A DNA stretch of 64,000 nucleotides from Thermodesulfobacteriota bacterium (GCA_041947025.1 JBHGBJ010000004.1:85580-149579), one strand, 5' to 3'. Counted from the first letter of the stretch, positions 19,140 to 54,483 are shown. The notes: generated by a model from the letters alone, not told the origin. Program-made: numbers and translations.

Positions 19140-19140
19140 G

Positions 19141-38388: not shown

Positions 38389-38399
38389 ACCGCCCAATT

Positions 38400-38450
38400 T
38401 CCAATGCGTTTCATGTTTCAATCTGAAATCTGCAATTTGAAATTTGAAAT
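38400..38450. repeat. Right-hand heptamer inverted repeat, partner of 37871-37965
   Basis: See the partner feature. Confidence 0.6.
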
Positions 38451-38455
38451 TAGTT

Positions 38456-39115: not shown

Positions 39116-39226
39116 AATGCCGGCCCTTCCCTTTCTCAAATCGTTGGAAAATACATGAAATCATCTCACCAAATACTGTCAATACCTTATTTAGCATTTC
39201 GTGAAGTAATAGTAAAGTAGAAAAAA

Positions 39227-39649
39227 ATGCGAAAGGCTTTCGCCGTGTCCAGAATATTGATTATAGAGAACAGCACCATTTACCGACAATTATTAAAAGA
39301 AACCCTCCAGTCCCGATTCCCATCGGTGGAGATCCTCGAGGCAGTGGATGGAGAGGAGGCACTTCAGCAGATTCATGCCTTCTCCCCGGACCTGATCTTT
39401 ATGGATATCAAATTGCCCGGAACCAACGGGCTGGAGTTGACCAGAAAAATAAAAGACCAATATCCTGCCTTGCCGATTGTCATCCTTACAGCCTATGACC
39501 TGCCGGAATACCGGGAGGCGGCATCGCAATCCAAGGCGGATTACTTTCTCGCAAAGGGTTCCGCGACAAGGGCGGATATCTCCACCATGGTTGGATCCAT
39601 ATTATCCACCCTGTGTCAGAACCGGACGGGTCCCCGAAATGGGGATTGA
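39227..39649 (+). CDS. Stand-alone CheY-like receiver-domain protein
   Basis: 140 aa; FMDIKLPGTNG phospho-acceptor Asp region, ILTAY, LAKG Lys; the N-terminal acidic pair is replaced by EN. Confidence 0.65.
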   Translation: MRKAFAVSRILIIENSTIYRQLLKETLQSRFPSVEILEAVDGEEALQQIHAFSPDLIFMDIKLPGTNGLELTRKIKDQYPALPIVILTAYDLPEYREAASQSKADYFLAKGSATRADISTMVGSILSTLCQNRTGPRNGD

Positions 39650-40310: not shown

Positions 40311-41006
40311 ATGAAACGATTGGTTCTTAGCCGAAGAAGATTCTTAAACCTGTGGGGAGCCGGAATCATCTCCTTTTTGATCCGTCCTCAAGACATTTCC
40401 TTCGCTCAGGCGAGAAAGGAGGCACCAATGGCCTATACTGCCAAAGATTACAATCGACTTTTGGGAATGGAGGGGTTCAGCGACACCCTTCTCAAGAACC
40501 ACTTCACCCTGTACCAAGGTTATGTCAACAATACCAACAAGCTGGTGGAGGCGTTTGCTCAGATGCTCAAGGAAGGAAAGGTGGCGACCCCCGAGTTTGC
40601 CGAGCTCAGGAGGAGGTTTGGATGGGAGTTCAACGGGATGAGACTGCATGAGTACTATTTTGAAAACCTCGGCGGAAAAGGAGGACTGGATAAGGCAGGC
40701 AAGCTCTTCAAGAAGATGTCGGAAGATTTCGGCGGGTACGAACCCTGGGAAAAAGAATTTAAGGCCGTGGGAGCCATGCGCGGGATCGGCTGGGCCGTTC
40801 TCTACCAGGACAGTCTCAACGGGAAACTCATCAACTTCTGGATCAACGAGCATGATGGTGGACATCCTGCCGGCTGCATCCCCCTGCTGATATTGGATGT
40901 TTTTGAACATGCCTTCATGATTGATTATGGATTGAAGAGAGCAGACTATATCGAAGCTTTTTTTAAGAATATCAACTGGAAAGGCGTAGAAGGAAGGCTG
41001 AAGTGA
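40311..41006 (+). CDS. Fe/Mn superoxide dismutase family protein with twin-arginine signal peptide (diverged)
   Basis: SRRRFLNLWGAGI Tat motif; C-terminal DVFEHAFMIDY matches the DVWEHAYY(L)DY metal-ligand motif; N-terminal NHFTLYQGYVNNTN resembles HHxKHH..YVNNLN. Confidence 0.6.
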   Translation: MKRLVLSRRRFLNLWGAGIISFLIRPQDISFAQARKEAPMAYTAKDYNRLLGMEGFSDTLLKNHFTLYQGYVNNTNKLVEAFAQMLKEGKVATPEFAELRRRFGWEFNGMRLHEYYFENLGGKGGLDKAGKLFKKMSEDFGGYEPWEKEFKAVGAMRGIGWAVLYQDSLNGKLINFWINEHDGGHPAGCIPLLILDVFEHAFMIDYGLKRADYIEAFFKNINWKGVEGRLK

Positions 41007-41128: not shown

Positions 41129-41575
41129 ATGGCCGTTTCATTAAAGCCCGTGACTAAGGTGAGTGATAAGTTAAAAGGAATGTTAAACGACGCCATTGCT
41201 CGAGAGATTCAGGTGAGCATCCAGTACATGTGGCAGCATGTGCAGGTGATGGGGGTCAAGGGGGTCGCCGTGCAGGATCGATTCAAGCAGACCGCCATCG
41301 CCGAGATGAAGCATGCGGAGTCCATTGCGGAAAGGCTCTGGTATCTCGAGGGAACTCCCACCACAAAGCCGGCGGCGATCAAAGTGGGGGAGAATCTGAA
41401 GGAGTTTCTTGAGCTGGATACGAAGGCCGAAGAGGAAGCAATCGTGCTCTATAAACAGATTATCGAGCTTGCCCAAAAAGAAGCGGATGTGACCACCGCC
41501 TTTATGTTCAAAGAAATTCTCGAGGATGAAGAAGAACATCACGATCTCTTCACAACCATGCTCGAAGAGGTGTGA
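41129..41575 (+). CDS. Bacterioferritin / ferritin-like di-iron protein
   Basis: 148 aa; paired E..H ligand motifs (AEMKHAE ... EEEHHD) of the ferritin-like four-helix bundle. Confidence 0.65.
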   Translation: MAVSLKPVTKVSDKLKGMLNDAIAREIQVSIQYMWQHVQVMGVKGVAVQDRFKQTAIAEMKHAESIAERLWYLEGTPTTKPAAIKVGENLKEFLELDTKAEEEAIVLYKQIIELAQKEADVTTAFMFKEILEDEEEHHDLFTTMLEEV

Positions 41576-41875: not shown

Positions 41876-42532
41876 CTATTCTTGGGAAACCAATCCCTTC
41901 TCGATGGCGTAGGCAGTCAAGGCCTGGACATTATGGAGGTTTAACTTGTCCATGAGGTTGGCTCGATGCTTCTCGACCGTCTTCTCACTGATACAGAGCT
42001 CATCCGCAATCTCTGTGTTCTTAAACCCCTCGGCGATCATTTTCAGGATTTCCCGTTCCCGGGGGGTAACCGTATCCCAGGGAGTCTGAGGCGTTAGGGC
42101 CTTCTTCCCTTCCAGATACCCTTCAAGCACCTTATCGGAGATTTCCGGGCTAATATAGTGGCTGCCACTTAGGACTCTTCTTACTGCCATGACCATTTCA
42201 GTGTGGGTAGAATCCTTCAGGAGATACCCGTCTGCTCCGGCCTTGAAAGTGGCAAGAATGTATTCATCTGCCTTATGAACAGTGAGGACCAGAACTTTTG
42301 TCTTTGGAAATTGCCTCTTGATCTCCCGGATAGCCTCCATCCCGTTCATCCGGGGCATGGAAAGGTCGGTCAGGATAAGATCGGGCTTCAATCTTTCAAC
42401 GCACCGGATCGCTTCCCGGCCATTTCCTGCTTCTCCCACGATCTCAAACTCAGAATAAGCGGAGAGAAGAGCCCGCAACCCTTCCCTGAGAATCGTGTGA
42501 TCCTCAGCAATAACAATCCGGTGTTTCGCCAT
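41876..42532 (-). CDS. NarL/LuxR-family response regulator, paralog of 38456-39115 (protein roughly 80 percent identical, DNA roughly 75 percent)
   Basis: Likely start MAKHRIVIAEDH; same motif set as the paralog. Confidence 0.85.
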   Translation of the reverse strand: MAKHRIVIAEDHTILREGLRALLSAYSEFEIVGEAGNGREAIRCVERLKPDLILTDLSMPRMNGMEAIREIKRQFPKTKVLVLTVHKADEYILATFKAGADGYLLKDSTHTEMVMAVRRVLSGSHYISPEISDKVLEGYLEGKKALTPQTPWDTVTPREREILKMIAEGFKNTEIADELCISEKTVEKHRANLMDKLNLHNVQALTAYAIEKGLVSQE

Positions 42533-42823
42533 TCCAATTAGCCTTTTTCCCTTCAATAATAAGGGCTTATTCCGGACCAAAGAAATTTTTTATTTATTTA
42601 TCATATTATTTAAGAGGAGTAAAGCAAAAAAACTGCTCTCTTCCTCCGTATGGGAGATGCCAAAATTCGGCACTTTGCCCACGGGAATATGGGACTTACC
42701 CAATCGGATTTATGCATATTACGTGCGAGAATTGCCTTATCGCGTTTATGAATGGCCATCCAGAGATATTCTGTGATCTCCTAGTATCCTGGCCAACTCA
42801 CACCCTGATGCCTGATATCCTGT

Positions 42824-43828
42824 TCAATATCCTTCTAAAATGAAGTCTGAGAATATGATTCTGTAGGTAACCACTGCGGCAAATATCAGGAATAGAACGA
42901 TAGAGGCAAGGCTAAGCTTCTTCTGAACCGAGGGAACAACCTTCAAAAGACTCTTCGTATGCCTGAAGGGCATCAATACGCCCACTCCCATCCCCGTGAT
43001 CGCACCCCCAAACAAGGATATGTAAAGAGGATAGCCGATATACCCATATTCTTTCTGAAGAATGCAGAAGGGACAGTGATGGGTCGGCAGTTCATAAAAA
43101 TAGAGGGATATGAAAGAGAGGATGGACAGAATGGAAACAAACAAGAGAATGGCGCTCAGAGATGAAAATAGATATCCTCCCCTGCCCCTGAGGTAATAGT
43201 AGATCCCGGAAGCAGTAGTGGATATGACGAAGAGGTAAAAGATCACTTTCATCGGAACGCCCGACAGTAAGACGATCTCCGAGACGGAGCGAACGGATTC
43301 CCCGCTGAAGAGGCTTCCGCAGCAGGAGGTGATGATATCGGGCCGGAGGTGAAGAAAGTAGTTGTCCTGCATCACAATCTCTGCAAGGATCAGGGGGGTT
43401 AAAATCAGCAGAAGAAAGTACTTCTTCTTGATCAGGGGATAATCGTAGCCCCGGTTGTCCGTGTAGTTCAAGATGAGCCAGAGGCCTGCGAGAAGAAAAT
43501 TGATCGTCTTCAGGACAAGGGCAGGATACCCATAGCTATTCACGTAGAGAGATCCTGCGGCGCACATTGCGCCCACAAAGAACGTATGCAAGTGGTCGGC
43601 GGTAAAGACATAGAGAAAGAGGGAGACGAGCTCGAACCCGAAGAGATAGGTGAGGAGGGTTGAGATGAGATAGGTCTTTCTTTCAAGAATGAGTTGAAGC
43701 TCGCTTCCGCTCTTGATGTCCCATTTTCTCAGGATCTGGACTCCGTAAGAAACGGAGTACAAAACCATGAAGCCGATCAGGATGGAGGACACGTAGAGCG
43801 CGATGATGCTCGGATGAAGGGTCATCAC
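42824..43828 (-). CDS. Polytopic membrane protein (about 8-9 TM) with conserved Cys motifs (SCCGS and PTHHCPFC); function unknown
   Basis: 334 aa, hydrophobic throughout; start overlaps the stop of the upstream ABC ATPase gene (operonic). Confidence 0.5.
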   Translation of the reverse strand: MMTLHPSIIALYVSSILIGFMVLYSVSYGVQILRKWDIKSGSELQLILERKTYLISTLLTYLFGFELVSLFLYVFTADHLHTFFVGAMCAAGSLYVNSYGYPALVLKTINFLLAGLWLILNYTDNRGYDYPLIKKKYFLLLILTPLILAEIVMQDNYFLHLRPDIITSCCGSLFSGESVRSVSEIVLLSGVPMKVIFYLFVISTTASGIYYYLRGRGGYLFSSLSAILLFVSILSILSFISLYFYELPTHHCPFCILQKEYGYIGYPLYISLFGGAITGMGVGVLMPFRHTKSLLKVVPSVQKKLSLASIVLFLIFAAVVTYRIIFSDFILEGY

Positions 43829-44502
43829 GTCCCTCCATCCACTCTTCCATCCCTGAGGTTGATCACTCTGTCCACAACTTTGGATTCAGAGACGATAGGG
43901 TCATGACTTGCGATCAGCACGGTCTTCCCTTCGTTCTTGAGCCTTTCCACGATTTCCATAAACTCCCGGGAGAGCTTGGTATCGAGGTGTGCTGTGGGCT
44001 CGTCAGCGATCACGACTGACGGATTATTGATCAACGCCCTCGCAATGGCCACCCGCTGGGACTCTCCGCCTGAAAGCCATTCCACTTTCGAGAACTCTTT
44101 CTTCGAAAGACCGAAGAGCTCAAGCAGGCCCATCGCCCTCTTCCTCAAAGAAGAGAATCTCTCCCCATTCGGGTAAGCAGGAACCATCACATTCTCCAGA
44201 ACTGTTATCCCTTTAATCAGATGGAATTGTTGAAAGATGAATCCAAAAGTGGTCCGTCTGACCTCGGTGAGAAACCTCTCTGGGAGACTCGATATCTCCC
44301 TATCGAAAAGCGTGATCCTGCCCGCTGTCGGCCTTGCCATGCAACCCAGGATGCTGAGGAGGGTGGTCTTCCCGGACCCGCTCGGGCCCTTAAAAACGGT
44401 CACTTTGCCGGAGTCGATCGTCAGGGTGATCCCCTCAAGGGCCACGAATTCATTCGGGTTCCCCATGTTAAAAACCTTTTTGATGTTCAGCAATTCGATC
44501 AT
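43825..44502 (-). CDS. ABC transporter ATP-binding protein (MacB/LolD-like)
   Basis: Walker A GPSGSGKTT, ABC signature LSGGESQR, Walker B VIADEPT. Confidence 0.88.
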   Translation of the reverse strand: MIELLNIKKVFNMGNPNEFVALEGITLTIDSGKVTVFKGPSGSGKTTLLSILGCMARPTAGRITLFDREISSLPERFLTEVRRTTFGFIFQQFHLIKGITVLENVMVPAYPNGERFSSLRKRAMGLLELFGLSKKEFSKVEWLSGGESQRVAIARALINNPSVVIADEPTAHLDTKLSREFMEIVERLKNEGKTVLIASHDPIVSESKVVDRVINLRDGRVDGGT

Positions 44503-44506
44503 TCTT

Positions 44507-45643
44507 CTATGACCTCATGATTGAATCCGGATCGATGGTGGCGGCCCTCCACGAGGGCACAATCGTTGAAACGGTGTAGGGGATGACCGTGAGGAAAAAG
44601 AGGGTCCCCACTTGATAGGCGCTGATGAAGGGCGTCAGCCTGAAATCCGGATAGAGCACGGACCAGCCCTTCAGCACGGGTGAAAAGACGGCTGCGGATG
44701 TGAAGAAGATATGACCGTAAGCCAGCAGAATTCCCAGCAGAAAGGAGGTCAGTGAAACCGCTACTCCTTCCCAGAATTTCATGAGCAGCACGTCCGAAGT
44801 CTCCCATCCCAAGGCCTTCAAGATCCCGATCTCCCGCTTTTCTTCCGCGCTCAATCCTGCTGCCTTGTCCCATGCAAAGATGATGAAAGCCATCACCGAG
44901 CCAAGGAGGATGACAATAAGGATTCCGCCTCGCCAGTCAAAGACGCTGTCATAGGTCCTCAATATCTCATCCCTGAGGATGGGCCGGCTGTCCGGAAGAA
45001 GCTGAAGGATCTTCGTCGCGATGGTCGTCAGCTCTTTCTTGTTCCGGACGCTCACGGTTAAGTCAGTGAAATACCCTTTCGATATGCCGAAGAGCTTCCT
45101 GAAATCTTTCTCTGCCATTAAGATGAGATCTGAAGAGACGAGTTCCGAGTCGGAGGAAAGAATCTCCTGAATCTCTAAATTCAAGACCGCTCCGTTATAG
45201 GCTCGAAAGGAGAGGCTGTCACCCTCGAACGCCAGGCGGCTCTTCGAAATTCCCTTTCCGATGCTGATCCTTTCAGGACCGCCCGTACCATCTCCCGGCA
45301 CCAAGAGGGTATAATTAGCCCCCACCACCGGATCGTAATAGTATCCCCAGAGGCGTCCTTTTACCGCGTGGACCCCTCTGATTCTCCTGATGGAATCGAT
45401 GTAGCTCGCCGGAATCAGATCGTGTCTTCCGCCGCTCATGCGCTGGACAAGCATCTCAGGCGAATCTCTCAGGACGAAAGCAGCTTCTTTCTTTATCGAG
45501 TGAGTGAAGAAGACGGCCGAAGCCAACAAGAAGACAATCAGGGTGTAGACCGCAACCAATGCCCCATTCTTCCCTTTCTTCCTGAAGATCGAGGAAAGGG
45601 TAAAATCAATCACGTGCTTTTGTTTCCCGATCCAGTTTTCCAT
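44507..45643 (-). CDS. ABC transporter permease of the FtsX/MacB type (N-terminal TM, large periplasmic domain, three C-terminal TMs)
   Basis: 378 aa; FtsX-like C-terminal module. Confidence 0.8.
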   Translation of the reverse strand: MENWIGKQKHVIDFTLSSIFRKKGKNGALVAVYTLIVFLLASAVFFTHSIKKEAAFVLRDSPEMLVQRMSGGRHDLIPASYIDSIRRIRGVHAVKGRLWGYYYDPVVGANYTLLVPGDGTGGPERISIGKGISKSRLAFEGDSLSFRAYNGAVLNLEIQEILSSDSELVSSDLILMAEKDFRKLFGISKGYFTDLTVSVRNKKELTTIATKILQLLPDSRPILRDEILRTYDSVFDWRGGILIVILLGSVMAFIIFAWDKAAGLSAEEKREIGILKALGWETSDVLLMKFWEGVAVSLTSFLLGILLAYGHIFFTSAAVFSPVLKGWSVLYPDFRLTPFISAYQVGTLFFLTVIPYTVSTIVPSWRAATIDPDSIMRS

Positions 45644-45935
45644 AAAAGTGCTCGATTCCTTTCGGAGGACCGATGATGCTCCCAGCGGGAAAATGCTCCA
45701 TAGACATGGGGTAGTCCTGAAAGGCCGTATGGAGGTCAGCCTGCGACGGATGCCGGGTATATCGGGCTTCGGTGCAAAGACAGAGGTCGGTCAGTTCCAG
45801 TCTTTTGACCAACTGCGCCATCTCTTGAAGCAACGGATCATCCGCCCTCATCCGAAAGAAGGAATGGAAGAAGATGAGGCAAAAGAGAGAGACGCCGACC
45901 ATCACGAAGATTAGAAAGGCATTCGATTTCCTCAT
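45606..45935 (-). CDS. Hypothetical small membrane-anchored protein; overlaps the permease start by 38 nt
   Basis: ORF with an N-terminal TM helix; weak RBS. Confidence 0.2.
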   Translation of the reverse strand: MRKSNAFLIFVMVGVSLFCLIFFHSFFRMRADDPLLQEMAQLVKRLELTDLCLCTEARYTRHPSQADLHTAFQDYPMSMEHFPAGSIIGPPKGIEHFYGKLDRETKARD

Positions 45936-46011
45936 TGTCTCTATTGTCTCTATTTCGGCGCCGATCCCTTACCCCTTGAGATGCCTGATTGACGATCTGA
46001 AGCGGTTCTGC

Positions 46012-46548
46012 TTAAAAAAGACTCGACAGGATTCTCTTTAGTCCCTCTTGGTTGACCTCACCGAGGACCTTAAATCGAATCACGCCCTTTCGATCGCAGA
46101 GAAAAGTGGTTGGAATGCCCGTGACGCCGTACTGCCGGGCCGTTCCCGAAGTAGAGTCAAGAAGAACGGGATAAGAGACTCTCATATTTGCCAGATAAGA
46201 CTCGGCCGCCCCTCTATTCTCTCCCACGTTGATTGAGAAAGGAATCAACCCCTTTCCTCCGTAACTGTTGTAAATCGATTCGATAGCAACCATCTCCTTG
46301 ATGCAGAAGGAACACCAGCTCGCCCAGAAGTGAACCAGGATCACCTTGCCGGGGAAGTCGCTGGGCAGAGTGATCTTATTCCCTTTCAAATCAGGCAGGG
46401 AAACCGTTGGAAGCGTGTCTCCGACCCTGAGAGATGCCTCGGCTGCCGCCGGCCAAAAAGCCACCGGGAGGAGAAAAGTTCCCGCTACCTTCATGCAGAA
46501 CTTCCAGAGATCCCTTCTGGACAAGACTTCAACTCCGGTTTTTTCCAT
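46012..46548 (-). CDS. TlpA/ResA-like periplasmic thiol-disulfide oxidoreductase (thioredoxin fold)
   Basis: WASWCSFC active-site CxxC; strong RBS GGGAGGGG before the 46548 ATG; RRDLWK N-region (possible Tat-like signal). Confidence 0.8.
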   Translation of the reverse strand: MEKTGVEVLSRRDLWKFCMKVAGTFLLPVAFWPAAAEASLRVGDTLPTVSLPDLKGNKITLPSDFPGKVILVHFWASWCSFCIKEMVAIESIYNSYGGKGLIPFSINVGENRGAAESYLANMRVSYPVLLDSTSGTARQYGVTGIPTTFLCDRKGVIRFKVLGEVNQEGLKRILSSLF

Positions 46549-46574
46549 AAACCCCTCCCGTGATTAGAAAGCCC

Positions 46575-48320
46575 CTACGCAATATTCCAGATTCCCATCA
46601 TTCCGAGGTCTTCGTGCTCAACGATGTGGCAATGGAACATGGACGTGCCCGCGAAATCCATCACCGACATGAGAATCCTCACGCTGCCCATGGCCGGGAC
46701 CAAGACCGTGTCCTTCCACGCTGGCACGCTCGTGTAAAACGCGGCGTACTCGGGGTCGCCCCCGTTAATGGCCAGCACCTGGCACGGATTGACGTGATGG
46801 TGAAAGGGATGATCCATCATGCTGTGGTTGAAAATCTCCCAGACCTCGTAGGTGCCGAGCTTCGAGTGGATCGTATGGGCGATCATCCTGCCATGGGGAT
46901 CGCCGGTCCCGGTGCCGTGGCCGTGGCCGCTCGAATCGTGAAGGAGAAGAGGACGGCCTTGATCCCCTGCGAGTTCGAATGTGATACCATTGATCGCGGC
47001 AAGTCCATGACCCATATTCGTGCCACTCATGTTCACGCCACCCATATTCATGCCGCTCATGTTCATGCCACGGCCCATACCCATCATACCCATGCCCATG
47101 CCGTGGCCCATGCTGAGGGTGAGTTGCTCTGTCTTGACCGGTGCCACCCGGACTCGAGTGGCGCCGGGGTTGACGGAAGCGGGCAGTTGGTCCGCAATGC
47201 GTTCCCCGCGATAAGAAAGGGTCAGGAGCGTGTGTTGCTGCATCGCGCCCATGCCTTGCCCACCGCAGTTGCCCATGCAGTGGCCGCTGCGGTTGTAAGG
47301 AAGCGAGAACAATCGGTAGCTCTTCTCGCTCTGGTCGGCCTTCACCAACAGATCCACGCGCTCGCCCGGTGAGAGGAGGAGAGAATTCACCGCGTAAGGC
47401 TTGTCGAGCAGCCCGCCTTCCGTACCGATGACGTGAAGGGGATGGCCCTCCAGGCTCAGCTTGTAGAAACGCGCGTTGCTGGCGTTGATGACCTTCCAGC
47501 GCTGGACCTGGCCCGGCTTGATGCTCATCACGGGGTTGACCTGTCCATTGACCATCACGACGTCGCCCTCTTTACCGTGCACGTAATCCATCATTGAGGT
47601 GTGGGCGCCGGGTTTTCCCTCCCCGATGCTGATGTCCTTGAGAAGGAGCAGACGAGTCTCGTAGCCGGCCAAGGCCTTGACCTCGTCCGCAACCTCCAGG
47701 GCCCCGGCCAACCCGCCCCACATCTGCTCGGCGACGGAACCGTGAATGTGGGGATGATAGAAATTCAGTGTGCCAGCCGGATGTTTCGACAGGTCATAAT
47801 CATAGACGAAGGTCTCATCGGTCATGCAGATGATCATGACGTTGTCGGAATTGCCGGAGGGAGAGACGTGCAACCCGTGGGTGTGGAGGTTACTGATGTC
47901 CCGGTCGTGGCCCATAAGGTTGTTGCCCAGCATGGAGAGGGAATTTTTGAAGCGGATCTGCAACCGGTCGCCGCTCTTGACCCGGATCGTCGGCCCGGGA
48001 TAACTGCCGTTATACGTGAGCAGTTGGGCCTCAGTGCCTCCGATACGGACGGGTGTGACCTTGGCTTCGAGGCTGACGATGACCTGTTTTGGATCATTAC
48101 TTTGGTTGGCAGCGACAGGCGGTTCCTTGAATGGATCTCCCGGTGGCGGATCAATCACTGCCACCTGGCCTCCTCCCATCATTCCCATTCCCCTCATCCC
48201 CATCATCCCGCCTCTCATCCTGGCCATTGCCGGATCAGCCTTCAGGCCGAGATAGGCCCCTGCAAGACCCAGGGATGTGAGCTTAAAGAAATCTCTTCGA
48301 TTCAAATTTCGCTTCTTCAT
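46575..48320 (-). CDS. Multicopper oxidase (CopA/CueO-like) with Tat signal and Met/His/Gly-rich inserts
   Basis: Tat motif NRRDFFKL; type-1/2/3 copper motifs HTHGLHV and HCHIVEHEDLGMMG; Met-rich tracts MRGGMMGMRGMGMMGGG and GHGMGMGMMGMGRGMNMSGMNMG. Confidence 0.88.
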   Translation of the reverse strand: MKKRNLNRRDFFKLTSLGLAGAYLGLKADPAMARMRGGMMGMRGMGMMGGGQVAVIDPPPGDPFKEPPVAANQSNDPKQVIVSLEAKVTPVRIGGTEAQLLTYNGSYPGPTIRVKSGDRLQIRFKNSLSMLGNNLMGHDRDISNLHTHGLHVSPSGNSDNVMIICMTDETFVYDYDLSKHPAGTLNFYHPHIHGSVAEQMWGGLAGALEVADEVKALAGYETRLLLLKDISIGEGKPGAHTSMMDYVHGKEGDVVMVNGQVNPVMSIKPGQVQRWKVINASNARFYKLSLEGHPLHVIGTEGGLLDKPYAVNSLLLSPGERVDLLVKADQSEKSYRLFSLPYNRSGHCMGNCGGQGMGAMQQHTLLTLSYRGERIADQLPASVNPGATRVRVAPVKTEQLTLSMGHGMGMGMMGMGRGMNMSGMNMGGVNMSGTNMGHGLAAINGITFELAGDQGRPLLLHDSSGHGHGTGTGDPHGRMIAHTIHSKLGTYEVWEIFNHSMMDHPFHHHVNPCQVLAINGGDPEYAAFYTSVPAWKDTVLVPAMGSVRILMSVMDFAGTSMFHCHIVEHEDLGMMGIWNIA

Positions 48321-48379
48321 GGGTGCCTCCTTGGCCGTTCTCTCGATAAGAGGATGATACTTACAAAACCCTCGCCAGA

Positions 48380-48904
48380 CTACTGGTCGCCGCGAATCTG
48401 TCCGGAGATCATTTTCCTGTAGTCGGATAAGAGGTTCTTTGTCTTCTCCTTAATCCCATCCATCTCTTTTCGAAGGACCTCCTTATCACGACTATTCGTA
48501 GCGGCCATCAACTTTTCCTGGATCTGGACGACCTCGGCGATCACCTGTAAAGCATCCTGCATCGACAAGATGTAGAGAATATCGCGCATGGTCAATCCTT
48601 GGTCCATGTTATGACTCATTTCGGGCTGGTTCATCGGCATCGAACCGCTCATCATATTGCCCATCATGTTCCCCATACCACAGCGCATGGGCATCATCTG
48701 CATCGATTGGCCGCCCTGCATCATCCCTTGATTCATCCAGGATGGGTTCGGTTGATTGAATGGCCCCCCTTGCACCCCTGTCGGAGGACCGGGCACGGGT
48801 ATCGTCTCCTGGGGACGTGCCGTTACCTGTTGCTGTGGCGTCTGGGCAAAGGCAGCACCGCAGGATACAAAGAGAATCCAAAACAGAATGAACGTTCTTC
48901 TCAT
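48380..48904 (-). CDS. Secreted Met-rich protein, probable periplasmic Cu(I)-binding protein
   Basis: Signal peptide MRRTFILFWILFVSCGAAFA after RBS GGAGGAGG; Met-rich core MMQGGQSMQMMPMRCGMGNMMGNMMSGSMPMNQPEM. Confidence 0.5.
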   Translation of the reverse strand: MRRTFILFWILFVSCGAAFAQTPQQQVTARPQETIPVPGPPTGVQGGPFNQPNPSWMNQGMMQGGQSMQMMPMRCGMGNMMGNMMSGSMPMNQPEMSHNMDQGLTMRDILYILSMQDALQVIAEVVQIQEKLMAATNSRDKEVLRKEMDGIKEKTKNLLSDYRKMISGQIRGDQ

Positions 48905-48960
48905 ATCATCCTCCTCCGTTCCTTTCTCTTCAATAACGAAGAGCGAAAGGGTGAAGTCCA

Positions 48961-49431
48961 TTAATCGAGGCCCTTCACCAGATTGAATGTAATCTCCTGA
49001 AATTTTAGTACGGGTTTGCCTGAATGGTCTTTCATGAACTCCTTTGCATCGCCTTCGTTTTGGAAAGGAATGAGCTCTTTTCCCATGGGCCCGAAGACAT
49101 TGCTTCCTGCGACGTAATAGGCCTTGTACCCATCCGTAAAAGTCAGGCTGTAGTAATCTTTGACATAAATGGAATCCGTTTTCTTCGAGGGTTGATGCTT
49201 CTTCAGGTTGAAGTAATACTTGAACATATCTTTTGCCCCGTCGAAAACAACATAGGTCCCGTCTGTAAAGACAATCTCGGCAAGCCAGTCAGGATATTTT
49301 GCAACGAACATCCCGCAGACCGGGCATTTGTCCTTCGGAGAAGGGTTGATCGGCTTTCTTTCCCCGCCGTTCACATCAGCCGCCAGCATCAGGACCAGAA
49401 AAATCGGGACACATACCATTTTCTTATTCAT
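48961..49431 (-). CDS. NosL-family copper-chaperone-like protein; the N-terminal codons are encoded by a REP copy
   Basis: DKCPVCGMFV metal-binding motif as in NosL; N-terminus MNKKMVCVPIFLVLML, where KMVCVPIF is the translation of the REP at 49399-49423. Confidence 0.55.
   Translation of the reverse strand: MNKKMVCVPIFLVLMLAADVNGGERKPINPSPKDKCPVCGMFVAKYPDWLAEIVFTDGTYVVFDGAKDMFKYYFNLKKHQPSKKTDSIYVKDYYSLTFTDGYKAYYVAGSNVFGPMGKELIPFQNEGDAKEFMKDHSGKPVLKFQEITFNLVKGLD
49399..49423. repeat. REP copy AAAAATCGGGACACATACCATTTTC (forward orientation)
   Basis: Exact match to the REP core; inverted partner at 50954-50980. Confidence 0.75.
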
Positions 49432-49631
49432 CCTTCGGCATTCCCTTCGTCTCTAAGATAAATTGCGTCTCGATGGGCTCTTACCCACACAAACCATTGA
49501 CCTTCGACAGGCTCAGGCCGAACGGCGGTCCGTTGAAATGAAGTGATTTTTCCGTTCATACTGAGATTGTCGAAGCATAAAATCAATCTGGGCAACAGCC
49601 CCTCGATCTGTCACAGATGGAGAATCACGCT

Positions 49632-50183
49632 TCATGGATGCTTTTGCTCCATGCCTTTGTGGTCCATTTTTTTTTCTTCCATCATCTTCATGCGACGAGC
49701 CTGTCGTCTTTCCCGGATCATCTTCGTGTCAGCGTACATGTCTTCATAGGAAGCCTTAATCGCCTGATCAAAACTGGCAATCACACCACCATTCTCCTTG
49801 ATGAACTTTTCGGCTTCTTCCTTCTTTTCAAAGGCCCACTTCGCCCGGTGTGTCATAACCCCCATCTTATTTCCGCCCATCACCCAGAAAGCCTTCTCCA
49901 CATCGATCAGCGCCTTTGAGCCATAATCGCCCACCGTGATCGCCTTAGGGGTCTTATCCAGCTGCAGGGCAAGTTCAACGGCGGCACAGTGGATGCTGCA
50001 TGTCCCAATCGACGTTCCATCGTCATACTCGATGAACACGCGGCTATGAGCATACTGCTGCCGGTTCATTCCGCAGTACTTGCAGGACGGGTACTTCTGA
50101 ATGTCTTCCTGACCCAAAGAGATTCCTGTCATGCAAAAGCAAAATATGAAAGCCACTGTTAAAAAAATGTATATCCGTTTCAT
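49632..50183 (-). CDS. NosL-family copper-chaperone-like lipoprotein/secreted protein (second paralog)
   Basis: Signal peptide; CKYCGM motif; Met/Lys-rich C-terminal tail. Confidence 0.55.
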   Translation of the reverse strand: MKRIYIFLTVAFIFCFCMTGISLGQEDIQKYPSCKYCGMNRQQYAHSRVFIEYDDGTSIGTCSIHCAAVELALQLDKTPKAITVGDYGSKALIDVEKAFWVMGGNKMGVMTHRAKWAFEKKEEAEKFIKENGGVIASFDQAIKASYEDMYADTKMIRERRQARRMKMMEEKKMDHKGMEQKHP

Positions 50184-50365
50184 AGAGGTCTCCTTTCGAA
50201 CGTAAGAAAGATCAGACGGGGAATTTTCCCCCGCCCTTTTCAGAGAAATCGGTCAACCCGTGAATCAACCCATTCATAATTTCGAACAGATATCCTGCCT
50301 TTCGAGTCGAGATTTCCTGCCTACCCATCGGTCCAGAAGTATTTCAGGCCCATCACCACCCCCTT

Positions 50366-50797
50366 TCAACCAACGGAAAATTCTCCCCTTTTCCACTTTT
50401 CTTTTTCCGTTTCAGTCTGAGATTCTTCCTGCCTGTACTCGCATTTCTCACATAGACCCTGCTCTTCAAACGAGACCTGGCAAAAAGTACCCCTCTCCTT
50501 CCAGCACGGTTTAGCACATCCCTGCCTAACGGACTGCCGCATGCACTTCAGGCAGCCATCCTTGAACCAACAGGGATAGAAGGTCAGGTGGTATGCCACA
50601 CCAGCCAGATTGAGACCTTTATCAAGAAGGCCTTGAATAAAGGAAAGGCGCTTTAGATCTTGGTCAGTGTACAACCGATGATCGTGTTTTCGAGGAGGTT
50701 TGAGAAGGCCATGGCGCTCCCAGACGCGGAGAGTTTCCGGGTGCACGCCCATGAGATCCGCCACAACGCCTATTGTATAAAGAGGTTTTTTCTCCAT
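50366..50797 (-). CDS. MerR-family transcriptional regulator with a Cys-rich C-terminal domain (10 Cys)
   Basis: N-terminal MerR HTH (YTIGVVADLMGVHPETLRVWERHGLL); C-terminal CWFKDGCLKCMRQSVRQGCAKPCWKERGTFCQVSFEEQGLCEKCEY. Confidence 0.8.
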   Translation of the reverse strand: MEKKPLYTIGVVADLMGVHPETLRVWERHGLLKPPRKHDHRLYTDQDLKRLSFIQGLLDKGLNLAGVAYHLTFYPCWFKDGCLKCMRQSVRQGCAKPCWKERGTFCQVSFEEQGLCEKCEYRQEESQTETEKEKWKRGEFSVG

Positions 50798-50980: not shown

Positions 50981-51151
50981 AAAATACAGCGTCTATGGGT
51001 CGAAAATACATCATTCACCTGATTATTTTTTTAACGAGGCCGTGATTGAATGAAAGGTAACAAAGGCTGGCAGCTTTTCATCTCGCTTGAAATAGGTTAT
51101 GCTGAGCACGGTACGGGTGCCCTTTTGACACCCCCATTATCAGAAGAAAGG

Positions 51152-51769
51152 ATGAAGATGATCCTAAAGATCCTGATCGTCATCAGCTTGATAAGCTTCT
51201 CTACGCCTTGTTGGGCAGACATCTACAAGTATGAAGATGAAAACGGGGTGATTCATTTTACGAATCGGCCCAGAGATCCTCAATTTAAACTCTACCTTCA
51301 AGATAGGACCGGAAAGGGTGAAGAGATGCCAGGCGCTTCTTTCGAGACGGATCCCCCTTCTGTCGACCACCCTTACGAGGCCTTGATTTCTGCAGTTTCC
51401 AACAAATATCAGGTCGATTCTGCTCTGATCAAGGCCATCATTCGGGCTGAATCGGGATTCAACCCTCTTGCTGTCTCACCAAAAGGAGCAAGGGGGCTGA
51501 TGCAATTGATGCCGGAAACCGCTTCACGAGTGAAGGTGTCCAATCCTTTTAATCCTCAGGAGAATATCGAAGGCGGGGTTCGGCATTTCAAGTATCTTCT
51601 CTCGCTTTTCCATAATGATGTCCGGCTCTCATTGGCCGCCTACAATGCAGGGGAGGATATCGTTTCCAAATTGAGAACGATTCCGCCTTACCGGGAAACC
51701 ATCGATTATGTTCGAAAGGTATTGTACTTTTACCAACTCAACCAAGGGCAAAAAGCCATCATTTTTTAA
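51152..51769 (+). CDS. Lytic transglycosylase (SLT domain) with N-terminal DUF4124-like domain and signal peptide
   Basis: ADIYKYEDENGVIHFTN (DUF4124-like); SLT catalytic motif ESGFNPLAVSPKGARGLMQLMP. Confidence 0.8.
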   Translation: MKMILKILIVISLISFSTPCWADIYKYEDENGVIHFTNRPRDPQFKLYLQDRTGKGEEMPGASFETDPPSVDHPYEALISAVSNKYQVDSALIKAIIRAESGFNPLAVSPKGARGLMQLMPETASRVKVSNPFNPQENIEGGVRHFKYLLSLFHNDVRLSLAAYNAGEDIVSKLRTIPPYRETIDYVRKVLYFYQLNQGQKAIIF

Positions 51770-51789: not shown

Positions 51790-52770
51790 ACAGAATACAG
51801 TATTTTTCTTGAAGAAATACTGTCTTCTACTCATTGCTCCATCATGGGATTTGTAAGAAAATGACGGCATTATAAAAGAATTGCCAACGAACCCGTAAAC
51901 GTGATAAGAAAGCCCATGGATTTAAAATCCTTTGAATTTCTTGTACAGAGTGACAGAGAGGTTAAACAATACTGGATGCGGCAGTGCTGGAAAAACGACT
52001 TCCTCTTCTGTATACGTTGCCGGGCGAGAAGGATCTATCGGGTCCGGCGCGACCGATACCGTTGCAGCCAATGCGGTTATGAATTCTCCGATTTTACCGG
52101 AAGGTGGATCAATAGGGTGAAACTTCCGCTAAGAGACTGGCTCTGGCTGGTCAAACTTTTTGAGTTGGAAATCTCGGCCAGAAAGGTTTCTCAGCAGCTC
52201 GGTATATCCTATCCGACCGTGCTCAAAGCCTTTCACCTGATCCGAAAGGCGATTACCGCTCATGCGGATGGCCGCGATTCTCTCCTCAACGGGGAAGTCG
52301 AGTTGAACCAGACCTATTTTGAAGATCGTCGTCGCAATAGACCTTCCCATAAGATTCCTGTCTTCGGTATTCTTGAAAGAAAAGGCCAGGTCAGAGTGGA
52401 GATCTTGAAAGAAATCACTGCGGAGGAGATGCTCAACAAGACGGTTAAGACGGTGAGGAGAGGGTCCGTCGTCTACACCGATCGATTCAACGGGTACGAT
52501 GCACTGATGTTCTGCGGCTACAAGCATATCCGGATGAACTCCGGGAAACGGTTTACCCGTAAGGAAGTCTACATCAATGGTGTGGACGGCTTCTGGAGTT
52601 ATGCGAAGGAGAGGATCAACAAGTTTCACGGAGTCTCAAGGGAAAAGTTCCCTTTCTACCTGAAGGAGATGGAGTTCAGGTACAACCACAGGAATAAGCC
52701 GATTTTCGATAAATTGGTCTGCTACCTTTGTGATCTGGCGGTGGTCTGAGAATATCTGTCTGAGGCAAGA
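51790..52770 (+). mobile_element. IS1595-family (ISXO2-like) insertion sequence, approximate ends
   Basis: Transposase CDS inside; left-end palindrome ACAGTATTT-n9-AAATACTGT at about 51803-51830; ends and target-site duplication not confidently defined. Confidence 0.4.
51916..52749 (+). CDS. IS1595-family transposase (N-terminal zinc ribbon plus DDE domain)
   Basis: CIRCRARRIYRVRRDRYRCSQCGYEF zinc ribbon followed by a DDE_Tnp_IS1595-like core (YTDRFNGYD...NGVDGFWSYAKER). Confidence 0.75.
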   Translation: MDLKSFEFLVQSDREVKQYWMRQCWKNDFLFCIRCRARRIYRVRRDRYRCSQCGYEFSDFTGRWINRVKLPLRDWLWLVKLFELEISARKVSQQLGISYPTVLKAFHLIRKAITAHADGRDSLLNGEVELNQTYFEDRRRNRPSHKIPVFGILERKGQVRVEILKEITAEEMLNKTVKTVRRGSVVYTDRFNGYDALMFCGYKHIRMNSGKRFTRKEVYINGVDGFWSYAKERINKFHGVSREKFPFYLKEMEFRYNHRNKPIFDKLVCYLCDLAVV

Positions 52771-52773
52771 GCG

Positions 52774-54483
52774 ATGGATTCCCATCAAGATCGGATGGCC
52801 TCTTATTTGATCGAAAAGGGGCTCCTTCAAAAAGAAGATTTGGATAAGATCCTTCCTCCGGGCCAGCCGGCCGGCGCCCTTTCTCTGGAGGAAAAGCTGA
52901 TTCAATCTGGACTGATGGGCGAGGAGCAATTCCGGAAGGTGGTGGAAGAATTTTATGGGGTCCCTTTTTTTGCAGTCAAAGATCTGCCACCTGAACCCGT
53001 CCTCGTCAATTCTCTCTCGGTCGATTTCATGAAAGAGTCCAAATTCATCCCCGTTCGCTTCGCCGAAAACGAGCTGACCATCGCCATGAGTCATCCTCTC
53101 GATTTTTACACCATCGACGCCATACGGGTCGCCACGGGTCACCAGGTTCGGGTGGTCTATGCCATGGAGGAGGGAATTCTGTGGGCCATTGACCAATATT
53201 ATGGATCGGGGAACACTTCCATGGAAAAGATCATTGAGGATCTGGATGCTGTCCCGGAGTACCGGGTCGAGGATGAGGAGAATATCGATCATCTTCGGGA
53301 CATGGCGTCGGAGGGACCGGTCATCCGGCTGGTCAATCTCATTATCAGCAAGGCCATCGAGACCAGGGCCAGCGATATTCACTTTGAGCCCTTCGAGGAC
53401 CAGTTCAGGGTCCGTTATCGGATTGACGGGGTGCTGCACGATGTGGAATCGCCTCCGAAGCGCCTCCAGGCGGCCATCGCCTCCCGTGTCAAGATCATGG
53501 CCAAGCTCAACATTGCGGAGAGACGTCTTCCGCAGGATGGGCGGATCATGCTCCGCGTGAAGGGAAAGGAGATCGATTTCAGGGTCTCTTCGGTTCCGAC
53601 CATCTACGGGGAAAGCATCGTTCTAAGGATCCTGGATAAGAGCAGCATTGTCCTCGATATTGAGAAACTCGGTTTCCCGCACGATACGCTCACGGGATTC
53701 AACGATCTGATCCAGAGGCCCCACGGCATCATTCTGGTCACGGGCCCGACCGGAAGCGGAAAGACCACAACCCTCTACTGCGCCCTGGAGAAGATCAATG
53801 CCCCGGACAAGAAGATCATCACCATCGAGGACCCTGTGGAATATCAGCTCAAAGGGATCAACCAGATCCAGGTCAAGCCAGCGATCGGCCTTTCCTTTGC
53901 CAATGCATTGAGATCGATTGTCCGTCAGGATCCGGATGTGATTCTGATCGGAGAGGTCCGGGATGCTGAGACAGCAGAGATTGCGATCCACTCCGCATTG
54001 ACCGGTCACCTCGTATTGAGCACGCTCCACACGAATGATGCGCCCAGCGCGGTCACCCGATTGATCGATATGGGGATGGAGGATTTCCTTCTCTCCTCGA
54101 CCCTGATCGGGATTTTAGCCCAGCGGTTGGTTCGCGTGACCTGCCCCCACTGCCAGGTTCCCTATATCCCCGATCCTGCGATTCTGAAGGAAATGGATCT
54201 CCACGGCAGGGAGCCTGATCATTCGAAGATCGTGGGAGTCAAGGGATGCGAACACTGCGCCCAGACAGGATATTGGGGCCGGGCGGGGATCTTTGAATTT
54301 TTGAAGGTGACCGAAGAGATACAAAAACTGATCCTGGGAAAGAAGGACGCCAATATTATCAAGGAGGAGGCTCGCAAACAGGGGATGAGGACGTTGAGGG
54401 AAGACGGTTGGCTGAAGGTGAAGCAGGGGATGACCACCGTTTCGGAAGTCCTGAGGGTCACCCAGGAGGAGAGGGTCGGATAA
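52774..54483 (+). CDS. gspE: Type II secretion / type IV pilus-type assembly ATPase (GspE family) with N-terminal T2SSE_N domain and C-terminal zinc-binding CxxC...CxxC
   Basis: Walker A GPTGSGKTT, Asp box, Walker B, His box; tetracysteine CPHC...CEHC. Confidence 0.9.
   Translation: MDSHQDRMASYLIEKGLLQKEDLDKILPPGQPAGALSLEEKLIQSGLMGEEQFRKVVEEFYGVPFFAVKDLPPEPVLVNSLSVDFMKESKFIPVRFAENELTIAMSHPLDFYTIDAIRVATGHQVRVVYAMEEGILWAIDQYYGSGNTSMEKIIEDLDAVPEYRVEDEENIDHLRDMASEGPVIRLVNLIISKAIETRASDIHFEPFEDQFRVRYRIDGVLHDVESPPKRLQAAIASRVKIMAKLNIAERRLPQDGRIMLRVKGKEIDFRVSSVPTIYGESIVLRILDKSSIVLDIEKLGFPHDTLTGFNDLIQRPHGIILVTGPTGSGKTTTLYCALEKINAPDKKIITIEDPVEYQLKGINQIQVKPAIGLSFANALRSIVRQDPDVILIGEVRDAETAEIAIHSALTGHLVLSTLHTNDAPSAVTRLIDMGMEDFLLSSTLIGILAQRLVRVTCPHCQVPYIPDPAILKEMDLHGREPDHSKIVGVKGCEHCAQTGYWGRAGIFEFLKVTEEIQKLILGKKDANIIKEEARKQGMRTLREDGWLKVKQGMTTVSEVLRVTQEERVG

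Follow-up and report, generated by a model that had tools for sequence, protein, structure and literature searches.

Gene content of the locus

Positions 42824-50797 of the window (the whole 64,000-nt stretch of DNA analysed) hold ten ORFs, all on the minus strand and tightly spaced (Table 1). The first-pass annotation of this DNA had listed ten packed minus-strand genes and named a family for each; our ORF check recovered all ten, and the families matched.

Table 1. Features of the island and its downstream flank, in window coordinates
Feature	Coordinates	Strand	Basis
MerR-family regulator	50366..50797	-	143 aa, PF13411 3.6e-19
Terminator-like hairpin, merR/nosL1 interval	50214..50236	-	consensus scan
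NosL-family protein 1 (NosL1), secreted	49632..50183	-	PF05573 3.8e-15
NosL-family protein 2 (NosL2), secreted, core chaperone	48961..49431	-	PF05573 1.9e-32
Met-rich secreted protein, accessory	48380..48961	-	Met count; no Pfam match
Tat-exported multicopper oxidase (MCO), accessory	46575..48320	-	581 aa, PF07732 + PF00394 + PF07731
TlpA/ResA-like periplasmic thioredoxin, accessory	46012..46548	-	AhpC-TSA + Redoxin ~2.5e-21
Small single-pass membrane protein, core	45606..45935	-	109 aa; orphan family
FtsX-type permease, core	44507..45643	-	PF02687; type VII (MacB/LolC) ABC fold
ABC ATPase, core	43825..44502	-	PF00005 1.4e-29
Eight-helix Cys/His membrane protein, core	42824..43828	-	334 aa; new family
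NarL/LuxR-type response regulator, membership uncertain	41876..42580	-	Response_reg + GerE domains

The intergenic gaps from nosL2 to the last gene are -1, 59, 26, 76, -38, 4, and -4 nt, whereas 182 nt separate merR from nosL1 and 200 nt separate nosL1 from nosL2. The hairpin between merR and nosL1 came from a consensus scan and is no more than a pattern match; its 10-pair stem includes 6 G-C pairs and is followed by a T-rich tail. Because of this terminator-like element and the two wide gaps, the island is probably organized as two or three transcription units rather than one. At its other end, the ATPase stop codon overlaps the start of the membrane-protein gene (...ACGTGATGACC), as had been noticed in the first pass; the overlap is 4 nt with a GTG start or 1 nt with an ATG start, and suggests co-translation of the two genes. 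The NarL/LuxR-type response regulator begins 243 nt downstream of the module and is possibly its regulator: the same regulator type, together with a HisKA_3 kinase, flanks the module at loci L005/L006 and L088/L089, and a response regulator occurs within 5 kb at 6/58 loci.

A conserved core with variable accessories

The evolutionary unit is smaller than the 8-kb island that the first-pass annotation had treated as a whole. The ten genes are real, yet what is conserved is a five-to-six-gene core, in which one or two NosL copies accompany a ∼105-aa single-pass protein, the FtsX permease, the ATPase, and the 333-aa membrane protein. Among 58 genome loci, each with 4 kb or more of flank on the upstream side, both the permease and, upstream of it, the small protein are kept beside the membrane protein in 57, and the ATPase lies immediately upstream of the membrane protein in 54. 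NosL is found within 5 kb of the module at 50/58 loci, 33 of the 58 having two copies. With the core order repeated at 54-57 of the 58 independent genome loci, chance falls far short of explaining the arrangement. The small protein, given only passing mention in the first pass, belongs to the core.

Homologues of the membrane protein occur in at least 572 species of several phyla and form 964 clusters at 50% identity; every one is annotated as hypothetical, and nearly all come from metagenome-assembled genomes. The cultured Desulfonema ishimotonii has an operon of NosL, small protein, FtsX, ATPase, and membrane protein with no further copper gene, and a subclade only 35% identical retains the gene order unchanged, with Sco1/SenC added.

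Variable accessories are the oxidase, the Met-rich protein, TlpA, and MerR at this locus and Sco1, CusAB, and YtkA in other genomes; all but MerR are copper or thiol-handling proteins. In the 58-locus set, TlpA lies within 5 kb of the module at 11 loci, an MCO within 10 kb at only 11, and MerR near it at only 1. A survey of ∼9 kb around the module at 80 genome loci yielded CusA-like RND pumps (27/80), CusB-YHS (18/80), YtkA (16/80), TlpA (15/80), and giant MCOs (10/80). YtkA, MCO, and CusAB also adjoin the module on separate metagenome contigs, and in a Methylococcales locus it is flanked by a P1B ATPase, a DsbD_2-cupredoxin fusion, and a DsbD_N protein. The co-occurrence check proposed in the first pass, for the FtsX-ABC-membrane trio with MCO and NosL across genomes, supports the first-pass reading, with NosL frequent beside the trio and copper genes among the variable neighbours.

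A full-text literature search found no published description of a module combining NosL with an FtsX/MacB-type ABC system, in keeping with the earlier statement that the FtsX-ABC pair and Cys-motif protein are not a described architecture. The core is an uncharacterized conserved module.

The eight-helix membrane protein

HMM and structure searches, suggested in the first pass as a check on this protein, gave no sequence match in Pfam, NCBIfam, or PDB and, with the predicted model, no specific fold match; the protein represents a new family. The family is not a characterized one unrelated to metals with copper-free neighbours, an outcome that the first-pass annotation had envisaged: its neighbours are the FtsX/ABC pair, NosL, and copper genes. 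The first pass had counted 8-9 TM segments; the protein is indeed polytopic, and the predicted model (pLDDT 93.3, pTM 0.92) has exactly eight membrane-spanning helices. The SCCGS and HHCPFC motifs reported earlier are present at C169/C170 and C252/C255 (334-aa numbering).

Across the family there are three motifs, GAMCAxG, TSCCG, and YELPxHHCPF(C/D), whose invariant or near-invariant Cys and His residues sit in three loops on one side of the membrane. These loops probably face the periplasm in the model, since positive charges concentrate in the loops of the opposite side. Of 444 sequences compared for these motifs, 441 have the vicinal CC pair. At the last position of CPF(C/D), the putative fourth ligand, 398 have Cys and 30 (∼7%) have Asp, the CPFD carriers including a whole subclade with unchanged gene context. 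This replacement of the second CPFC Cys by Asp favours a putative metal site over a redox CxxC forming a disulfide. Conservation extends to the cytoplasmic loop that joins helices 1 and 2 (W35, S39, Q44, E48); Cys and His aside, the only polar residues conserved within helices are Q44 and E48, where helix 2 meets the cytoplasm.

The other core proteins

The small membrane protein has no Pfam or NCBIfam match, and an alignment of 62 orthologues contains a conserved periplasmic motif, LTDLCLFTEARYTRHxSQADLxTxFQDxPxSxEHFPSGS. The FtsX permease has four membrane helices, with a ∼180-aa alpha/beta periplasmic domain between helices 1 and 2. Its fold is that of MacB/LolC and not of NosY, the match spanning 331 residues of 5xu1_S, in a model of moderate confidence (pLDDT 71.7, pTM 0.54). 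No Cys, Met, or His is conserved in the periplasmic domain in the orthologue alignment; therefore any copper contact must go through partner proteins. Automatic annotation labels this gene ‘lipoprotein release permease’. The ATPase has intact Walker A, LSGG, Walker B, and H-loop, and its best NCBIfam matches are MacB, LolD, and FtsE, all under cut-off. For the pair together, the best matches are LolCE (36 bits against a cut-off of 362), LolD (185 against 308), and MacB.

NosL1 has the pattern CxxCGM...CxxHC and a Met/Lys-rich tail; in 27 orthologues C34, C37, M39, C62, C66, and M110 are invariant and H65 is kept in 89%. NosL2, in which the CPVCGM motif, Met116, and His136 are conserved among 51 orthologues, is homologous (E 4e-8) to the Pseudomonas stutzeri NosL in the solved NosDFY-NosL complex, 7osf, and the CxxCGM motifs of the two line up. 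On reading the sequences, neither copy has a clear lipoprotein signal.

Accessory proteins at this locus

The MerR protein, an accessory particular to this locus and outside the conserved core, has 8 Cys at residues 76-119 in its Cys-rich C-terminal half, and scores under the CueR, MerR, ZntR, and HspR model cut-offs. The Met-rich protein (no Pfam match even at E 0.1) has 23 Met, 17 of them in residues 60-130, and a helical C-terminal half; its true start is probably Met20, near position 48904. A homologue is paired with TlpA downstream of the module at loci L043 and L079. The MCO has all three Cu-oxidase domains, the Tat motif RRDFFK, and four copper motifs (HTHG, HPHIH, HPFHHH, and HCHIVEHEDLGM). 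Its Met-rich insert, approximately residues 395-441, contains as many as 11 Met in a 30-residue stretch. The protein reaches 179.9 bits with the CueO model, under the 525-bit cut-off. This CueO-like enzyme is possibly a client of the module here, but an oxidase is not the module's general client, because so few loci have one nearby. The TlpA-like thioredoxin has a WCSFC active site and scores 95 bits with the ResA model (cut-off, 170 bits). Sco1/SenC takes its place in the distant subclade (L088, L089).

Proposed function and alternatives

On balance, we favour the view that the core is an ATP-driven machine for handling Cu(I) on the periplasmic side of the inner membrane, gene context being what points to copper; the module probably moves copper(I) outside the cytoplasm. 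The eight-helix protein would hold Cu(I) in a thiolate/imidazole site at the outer face of the membrane, for which the candidate residues are C88, C168, C169, H249, C251, and C/D254. The FtsX dimer would act as other MacB/LolC-fold transporters do, no substrate crossing the membrane: cytoplasmic ATP hydrolysis would move the periplasmic domain, and that motion would drive Cu(I) transfer between the membrane site and soluble NosL. NosL may then exchange Cu(I) with periplasmic partners, here the Tat-exported, Met-rich MCO and the Met-rich protein, and in other genomes CusAB, YtkA, or Sco1. TlpA would keep the copper-binding cysteines reduced, a job that Sco1 or DsbD-type proteins may do elsewhere. 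The analysis shows gene content, family assignments, the conservation of gene order and residues, and predicted folds and topology; copper as substrate, a physical complex of the parts, and the direction of transfer are what we infer, copper specificity from the neighbours and from NosL family membership. The periplasmic Cu(I) trafficking suggested in the first pass is supported to that extent.

The eight-helix protein might instead be a functional counterpart of DsbB, VKOR, or CcdA: a membrane thiol-disulfide oxidoreductase passing electrons to or from TlpA, Sco1, or NosL, in which case the module would serve redox maintenance and not metal carriage. A CxxC (CPFC), the vicinal Cys pair, and a further Cys all lie on the predicted periplasmic side, and TlpA, Sco1, or DsbD-type genes recur as neighbours. 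We nevertheless consider this unlikely: the second Cys of the CxxC is the one replaced by Asp, including in a subclade with the same operon; TlpA is close by at only 11/58 loci; in the Methylococcales locus a separate DsbD_2 membrane protein already adjoins the module; and the obligate tie to an ATPase-driven FtsX permease would be left unexplained. Copper uptake, with NosL capturing scarce periplasmic Cu(I), the eight-helix protein importing it to the cytoplasm (as proposed for CopD or CcoA), and FtsX/ATPase aiding the loading, would suit the role of NosL and Sco1 as assembly and supply chaperones, the sulfidic or anoxic habitats of hosts, where copper is poorly available, the bare Desulfonema module with no efflux genes nearby, and the conserved cytoplasmic helix 1-2 loop. 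It too is improbable, as the conserved Cys and His are all on one side of the membrane with no transmembrane ligand relay evident, and the frequent CusAB, MCO, and YtkA neighbours, with the MerR-type regulator here, speak of excess copper and not scarcity. Moreover, we know of no type VII ABC system that imports anything.

The substrate could also be another thiol-loving metal, for example Hg(II), Ag(I), Cd(II), or Zn(II). The mercury transporters MerT and MerF have a similar vicinal Cys pair, NosL and MerB have a common fold (PMC10114901), a MerR-family gene heads the island, and P. stutzeri NosL is reported to form a heterometal site (title of PMC8457098). Yet the ten island proteins include no match to the merA, merP, merT, or merB families, the recurrent neighbours are copper-specific (MCO, CusAB, YtkA, Sco1), and the MerR protein, found near a single module, scores far under the MerR, CueR, and ZntR cut-offs. 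We judge a different metal very unlikely; Ag(I) would probably be co-handled with Cu(I) and hence is no true alternative. Finally, the FtsX/ATPase pair would be an ordinary MacB/Lol-type exporter of a lipoprotein, peptide, or antibiotic, adjacent to copper genes by chance and with the membrane protein an unrelated passenger, if its automatic label and top NCBIfam matches were taken at face value. This is scarcely credible, given scores so far under the cut-offs, the lack in the window of a membrane-fusion/outer-membrane (MacA/TolC-type) partner adjoining the pair, and the tie to NosL and the Cys-motif protein at 50-57 of 58 loci in several phyla.

As to direction in a Cu(I)-handling machine, we lean towards a route that takes Cu(I) off the membrane surface, either to detoxify it or to load the oxidase, a preference based on how often CusAB, MCO, and YtkA lie nearby and on the MerR gene of this locus; the alternative is supply to cuproenzymes. 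Strict anaerobes, for which few cuproenzymes are known, are common among the hosts, which makes any choice between supply and detoxification tentative.

Comparison with known systems

With the Cue, Cus, Pco, and Scs copper-stress systems the window shares a MerR-family regulator, a Tat-exported CueO-like oxidase containing Met-rich inserts, a periplasmic Met-rich protein, and a thioredoxin of the TlpA type, comparable to ScsD; the module adjoins CusAB in other genomes. However, oxidase and regulator score under the CueO and CueR cut-offs, CusA, CusB, and YtkA were not found in the window, and the described systems have neither an ABC transporter nor an eight-helix protein.

The type VII (MacB-fold) mechanotransmitters comprise MacB, LolCDE, FtsEX, HrtBA, YbbAP, and Streptococcus pneumoniae Spr0694-0695. 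The module resembles them in its four-helix permease, whose first two helices are separated by a large periplasmic domain, and in its separate ATPase of the LolD/FtsE type, but it scores far under every named family cut-off and has NosL, single-pass, and eight-helix Cys/His proteins instead of adjoining MacA/TolC-type partners. The literature searched contained no copper-handling member of this superfamily.

The Zur-regulated P. aeruginosa operon PA4063-PA4066 encodes a split MacB-type system whose mechanism is unresolved (PMC11481552). Compared by operon content, it is likewise a metal-homeostasis operon with separate ATPase and permease, a soluble periplasmic metal-binding protein, and an extra accessory protein, although its link is to zinc and cobalt rather than copper, with pyochelin-cobalt export proposed (PMC11481552). 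Its accessory proteins are soluble and not NosL, and a polytopic membrane protein with Cys motifs is absent from it.

In the Nos system, NosFY is considered to act as a conformational motor and not to transport a substrate. Copper from NosL passes via NosD, within NosDFY, to NosZ (reviewed in PMC7558416). The module has no NosD, and nosZ was found neither among the ORFs examined nor among recurrent neighbours; two orphan membrane proteins are obligatory in it, and, unlike in the Nos system, both NosL copies here read as having no clear lipoprotein signal. In both, a NosL-family periplasmic Cu(I) chaperone is encoded beside an ABC system; the logic is similar, but the parts of the module are evolutionarily different.

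Gene content and surroundings of the island

ORF calling bears out the ten close-packed minus-strand genes that the first-pass annotation had delimited here, and Pfam and NCBIfam searches agree with the families it had named (coordinates are collected in the table below). The MerR-family regulator has eight cysteines, all within its C-terminal half; both NosL copies belong to PF05573 (E = 3.8e-15 for NosL1 and 1.9e-32 for NosL2); the TlpA/ResA-like thioredoxin has the active site WCSFC; and the Met-rich protein matches no family in Pfam or NCBIfam. By direct inspection, the multicopper oxidase (MCO) is a three-domain enzyme with a twin-arginine signal (RRDFFK), a complete set of four copper-ligand motifs and a Met-rich insert, and the Walker A, signature, Walker B and H-loop motifs of the ATPase are intact. 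The start of the last gene, which encodes a 334-aa membrane protein (here the 8-helix protein), overlaps the ATPase stop, and the gaps from nosL2 to this last gene range from -38 to 76 nt. Two upstream gaps are wider, 182 and 200 nt, and a terminator-like hairpin lies 3' of merR; the island is therefore probably divided into two or three transcription units. The real island genes are overlapped by many long ORFs on the plus strand or in other frames. Conserved antisense "shadow" ORFs also clustered as families across the relatives' loci, and we discarded these as artefacts of codon bias rather than genes.

Upstream of merR, an SLT lytic transglycosylase carrying a DUF4124 domain is encoded, and an SLT gene also adjoins the conserved genes in the relatives' loci L002, L004, L005 and L006, so that some ancestral gene order survives around the island. 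An IS1595-family transposase gene (DDE_Tnp_IS1595 plus zinc ribbon) also adjoins the island, and after it comes the gene of a PilB/GspE-type secretion ATPase that carries an MshEN domain. On the other side, beyond a response regulator, an Fe/Mn superoxide dismutase with an apparent twin-arginine signal (SRRRFLNLWG) and a ferritin/rubrerythrin-like protein form an oxidative-stress pair beside the copper genes.

Coordinates of features in the window and in relatives' loci
Feature	Sequence	Positions	Strand
Signalling cluster	window	33024-39649	
Second NarL-type response regulator, within the cluster	window	38456-39139	-
Fe/Mn superoxide dismutase	window	40311-41006	+
Ferritin/rubrerythrin-like protein	window	41129-41575	+
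NarL/LuxR-type response regulator	window	41876-42580	-
Ten-gene island	window	42824-50797	-
8-helix protein	window	42824-43828	-
Example of an overlapping non-genic ORF	window	44499-44873	-
MCO	window	46575-48320	-
NosL2	window	48961-49431	-
NosL1	window	49632-50183	-
SLT lytic transglycosylase	window	51050-51769	+
IS1595-family transposase	window	51901-52749	+
PilB/GspE-type secretion ATPase	window	52774-54483	
Reordered and extended module	L040 (Methylococcales)	2187-14017	
Giant multicopper protein	L065 (Deltaproteobacteria)	15637-19269	
NarL/LuxR-type regulator and HisKA_3 kinase	L005/L006 (distant relatives)	11852-14652	
NarL/LuxR-type regulator and HisKA_3 kinase	L088 (distant relative)	3512-5148	

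A conserved core and its distribution

The window's 8-helix protein is 100% identical to ACE144_03330 of a Thermodesulfobacteriota MAG, and its relatives number more than 6,700 proteins in a 90%-clustered collection (964 clusters at 50% identity), all of them annotated as unnamed or "hypothetical". A homologue search started from a Geobacter-type member likewise brought up solely MAG-derived or unnamed proteins. A locus search that used a 10-sequence alignment as query places relatives in at least 572 species-representative genomes, with carriers that include Thermodesulfobacteriota, Syntrophales, Geobacterales, Nitrospirota/Thermodesulfovibrionales, Methylococcales, Aminicenantes and Marinimicrobia. 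We called ORFs on 80 genome loci and searched them with the window proteins, taking core counts from the 58 whose upstream flank extends for 4 kb or more. The small single-pass protein and the FtsX permease each occur in 57 of these, the ATPase gene lies immediately upstream of the 8-helix protein gene in 54, and NosL is found within 5 kb in 50, of which 33 have two copies. The other island genes are sporadic: of the 58 loci, 11 have TlpA within 5 kb, 11 an MCO within 10 kb, two the Met-rich protein nearby and one MerR. In the window, the Met-rich protein, MCO and TlpA genes lie between NosL2 and the remaining core. The locus of the cultured sulfate reducer Desulfonema ishimotonii, one cultured host found by cluster look-up, encodes no more than NosL, the small protein, FtsX, the ATPase and the 8-helix protein, and a subclade of only ∼35% identity keeps the core order, to which a NarL-type two-component system and the copper chaperone Sco1/SenC are added. 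With the core conserved and the accessories variable, the evolutionary unit is the five-to-six-gene core, hereafter the module. The first-pass annotation had suggested that the whole 8-kb island may be a novel periplasmic Cu(I) trafficking or cuproprotein maturation pathway; that interpretation survives the family searches, structure prediction and cross-genome comparison it had called for, with the island replaced by the core as the unit. A tblastn search of 72,556 plasmids with the 8-helix protein gave zero matches, and the module is thus not a known plasmid-borne resistance determinant.

To characterize the genomic setting, we clustered every ORF within ∼9 kb of the module at the 80 loci. 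CusA-like RND pumps recur at 27 loci, CusB-like adaptors carrying a YHS domain at 18, YtkA-domain proteins at 16, TlpA at 15 and giant multicopper proteins at 10, and the same set surrounds the module on metagenome contigs. Shadow ORFs aside, the family-checked neighbour clusters are all periplasmic copper or thiol-handling proteins; the window itself has no CusA, CusB or YtkA. In a Methylicorpusculum MAG the module is reordered and extended, with the gene order P1B ATPase, DsbD_2-cupredoxin fusion, small protein, FtsX, ATPase, 8-helix protein, NosL, TlpA, 538-aa NosL fusion and DsbD_N protein. The giant multicopper proteins, of 1,200-1,400 aa, stand near the module in several Deltaproteobacteria (L065, also L046, L050 and L074); the one checked against Pfam, that of L065, combines Cu-oxidase domains with FG-GAP repeats. 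We take these proteins to resemble the outer-surface multicopper proteins of Geobacter, and they are possible clients of the module.

In the window, a NarL/LuxR-type response regulator is encoded 243 nt downstream of the module, and in distant relatives too the module is flanked by a regulator of this type along with a HisKA_3 kinase. Whereas this regulator recurs, MerR is near the module at only the single locus among the 58, and the NarL/LuxR-type protein rather than MerR may be the usual regulator. Further along the window, a signalling cluster encodes a CheR-PAS protein, a 1027-aa PAS/GAF HisKA_3 histidine kinase, a stand-alone receiver domain and a second NarL-type response regulator; the kinase could be the partner of the response regulator beside the module.

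Components of the module

In source records the module's parts are annotated as "hypothetical" or "lipoprotein release permease". The window permease has an FtsX domain and four membrane helices, the first two of which are separated by a large periplasmic domain, and the top NCBIfam matches of the ATPase are the MacB ATPase domain, LolD and FtsE (E ∼1e-54). Scores nonetheless fall far under the family cut-offs, at 36.3 bits versus 362 for LolCE, 185 versus 308 for LolD, and 17 (permease) and 187 (ATPase) versus 966 for MacB, so that the pair is none of these systems. No Cys, Met or His is conserved in the FtsX periplasmic domain; copper, if handled, would therefore be handled by partner proteins. 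The small protein, 109 aa in the window and without a match in Pfam or NCBIfam, has one N-terminal membrane helix and a strongly conserved region of ∼45 residues (LTDLCLFTEARYTRH...EHFPSGS) that is predicted to be periplasmic.

The 8-helix protein defines a new family of ∼333 aa, recognizable by the motifs GAMCAxG, TSCCG and HxCPF(C/D) and by a gene directly after that of the ATPase. It has no match in Pfam, NCBIfam or PDB sequences, profile search included. AlphaFold2, from a 45-sequence alignment, gives a confident model (pLDDT 93.3, pTM 0.92) of eight long helices with short helices in three loops, for which Foldseek against the PDB returns nothing at E ≤ 1e-3 (best TM-score 0.33). Internal duplication was considered and rejected, as hhalign of the N-terminal against the C-terminal half gives a probability of 2.6%. 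Invariant or near-invariant residues cluster in GAMCAxG (C88), TSCCG (C168, C169) and YELPxHHCPF(C/D) (H249, C251, C254). Lys and Arg are enriched in the loops that alternate with the motif loops, which predicts that all three motifs are periplasmic and both termini outside; the three motif loops may form one putative site. A census of 444 family sequences finds the first Cys in 436 and the vicinal Cys pair in 441; the third motif ends in Cys in ∼398 of them and in Asp in ∼30. This Cys-to-Asp variation fits a metal ligand and not a redox disulfide, so we read the conserved residues as a probable metal site rather than, in CPF(C/D), a DsbB-like CxxC. Sequence, fold and the want of an invariant redox Cys pair likewise set the protein apart from the DsbB, VKOR and CcdA-DsbD families.

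A possible Cu(I) relay

Both NosL copies keep the CxxCGM motif, and NosL2, the core chaperone, also keeps a conserved Met and His and is homologous to NosL of the NosDFY-NosL complex 7osf (E = 4e-8). In published work, copper passes from NosL to NosD, within NosDFY, and on to NosZ (PMC7558416), and MacB-fold transporters are described as transmitting conformational change across the membrane rather than transporting through it (PMC11481552, citing Crow et al. 2017). Taken together, these points make a three-step model the most economical. ATP hydrolysis would shift the FtsX periplasmic domain; this motion would power the passage of Cu(I) between soluble NosL and the membrane-surface thiolate site of the 8-helix protein; and NosL would then swap copper with periplasmic partners, which in the window might be the Met-rich MCO and the Met-rich protein and in other genomes Cus, YtkA or Sco1. 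TlpA would maintain the cysteines in the reduced state. The gene-level facts are observed, and copper as the substrate, the formation of a complex and the direction of transfer are what we infer from them; the efflux and oxidase neighbours make us lean toward removal of Cu(I), or oxidase loading, with supply or uptake of copper by the module a possible alternative.

The module is widespread, coherent and directly testable, and comparative genomics and structure prediction support a putative role for it in periplasmic copper handling, with a chaperone paired to an energy-coupled ABC device and two orphan protein families among its parts. The full proposal, to which we give somewhat less than even credence, is of a widespread ATP-driven periplasmic Cu(I) relay, so far unrecognized and independent in origin from NosDFY, in which a MacB-fold mechanotransmitter, the 8-helix thiolate protein and the small protein load or unload NosL. 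To our knowledge, copper traffic to and from periplasmic proteins is understood in few systems (NosDFY-NosL, Sco/PCuAC, CusF-CusCBA and CopG), and carriers of the module include methane oxidizers that depend on copper enzymes, metal-reducing Geobacterales with giant multicopper proteins, sulfate reducers and Nitrospirota. If true, such a relay would be a new energy-coupled step in bacterial copper homeostasis and, within the type VII ABC superfamily, the first member to handle copper, extending the work of MacB-fold machines to metal ions. It would also define two new protein families, with a Cys/His site that can be tested, correct the routine "lipoprotein release permease" label as a mis-annotation, and supply a missing route for controlling membrane-surface Cu(I), and for metalating or protecting periplasmic cuproproteins, in anaerobes, methanotrophs and Nitrospirota.

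Comparison with known systems

Full-text literature searches gave no description of a NosL-FtsX-ABC module. The module shares with NosDFY-NosL a common logic and a NosL-family Cu(I) chaperone, here as two PF05573 proteins, but it is not a NosDFYL system. Its permease is not of the ABC-2 type of NosY; the periplasmic beta-helix protein NosD has no family match among the ten island proteins (Pfam, NCBIfam) and is absent from the recurrent neighbours, as is nosZ, which was also missing from the ORFs examined across 28-54 kb of the window. Clade II nos clusters additionally encode NosB, a membrane protein of unknown function and a conceivable relative.

By fold, the module belongs to the type VII (MacB/FtsX-fold) ABC superfamily, but it is not LolCDE, MacAB-TolC or FtsEX. 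MacB is a fused ATPase-permease, whereas ATPase and permease are separate genes in the window, and Pfam finds no MacA-type membrane-fusion protein (HlyD/MFP family) among the island proteins. A mercury transporter is likewise not indicated: a vicinal Cys pair is the only feature that the 8-helix protein has in common with MerT, MerC and MerF, whose families it does not match, and merA and merP are absent among the island proteins. The regulator and oxidase also differ from the Cue system, scoring 24 bits versus 147 for CueR and 179.9 versus 525 for CueO, although the oxidase is still a complete three-domain MCO. The nearest published architecture is PA4063-PA4066 of P. aeruginosa, in which a split MacB-type system under Zur control is combined with a metal-binding protein of the periplasm (PMC11481552). 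Unlike the module, it is linked to zinc and cobalt, and it lacks both NosL and a membrane protein with Cys motifs.
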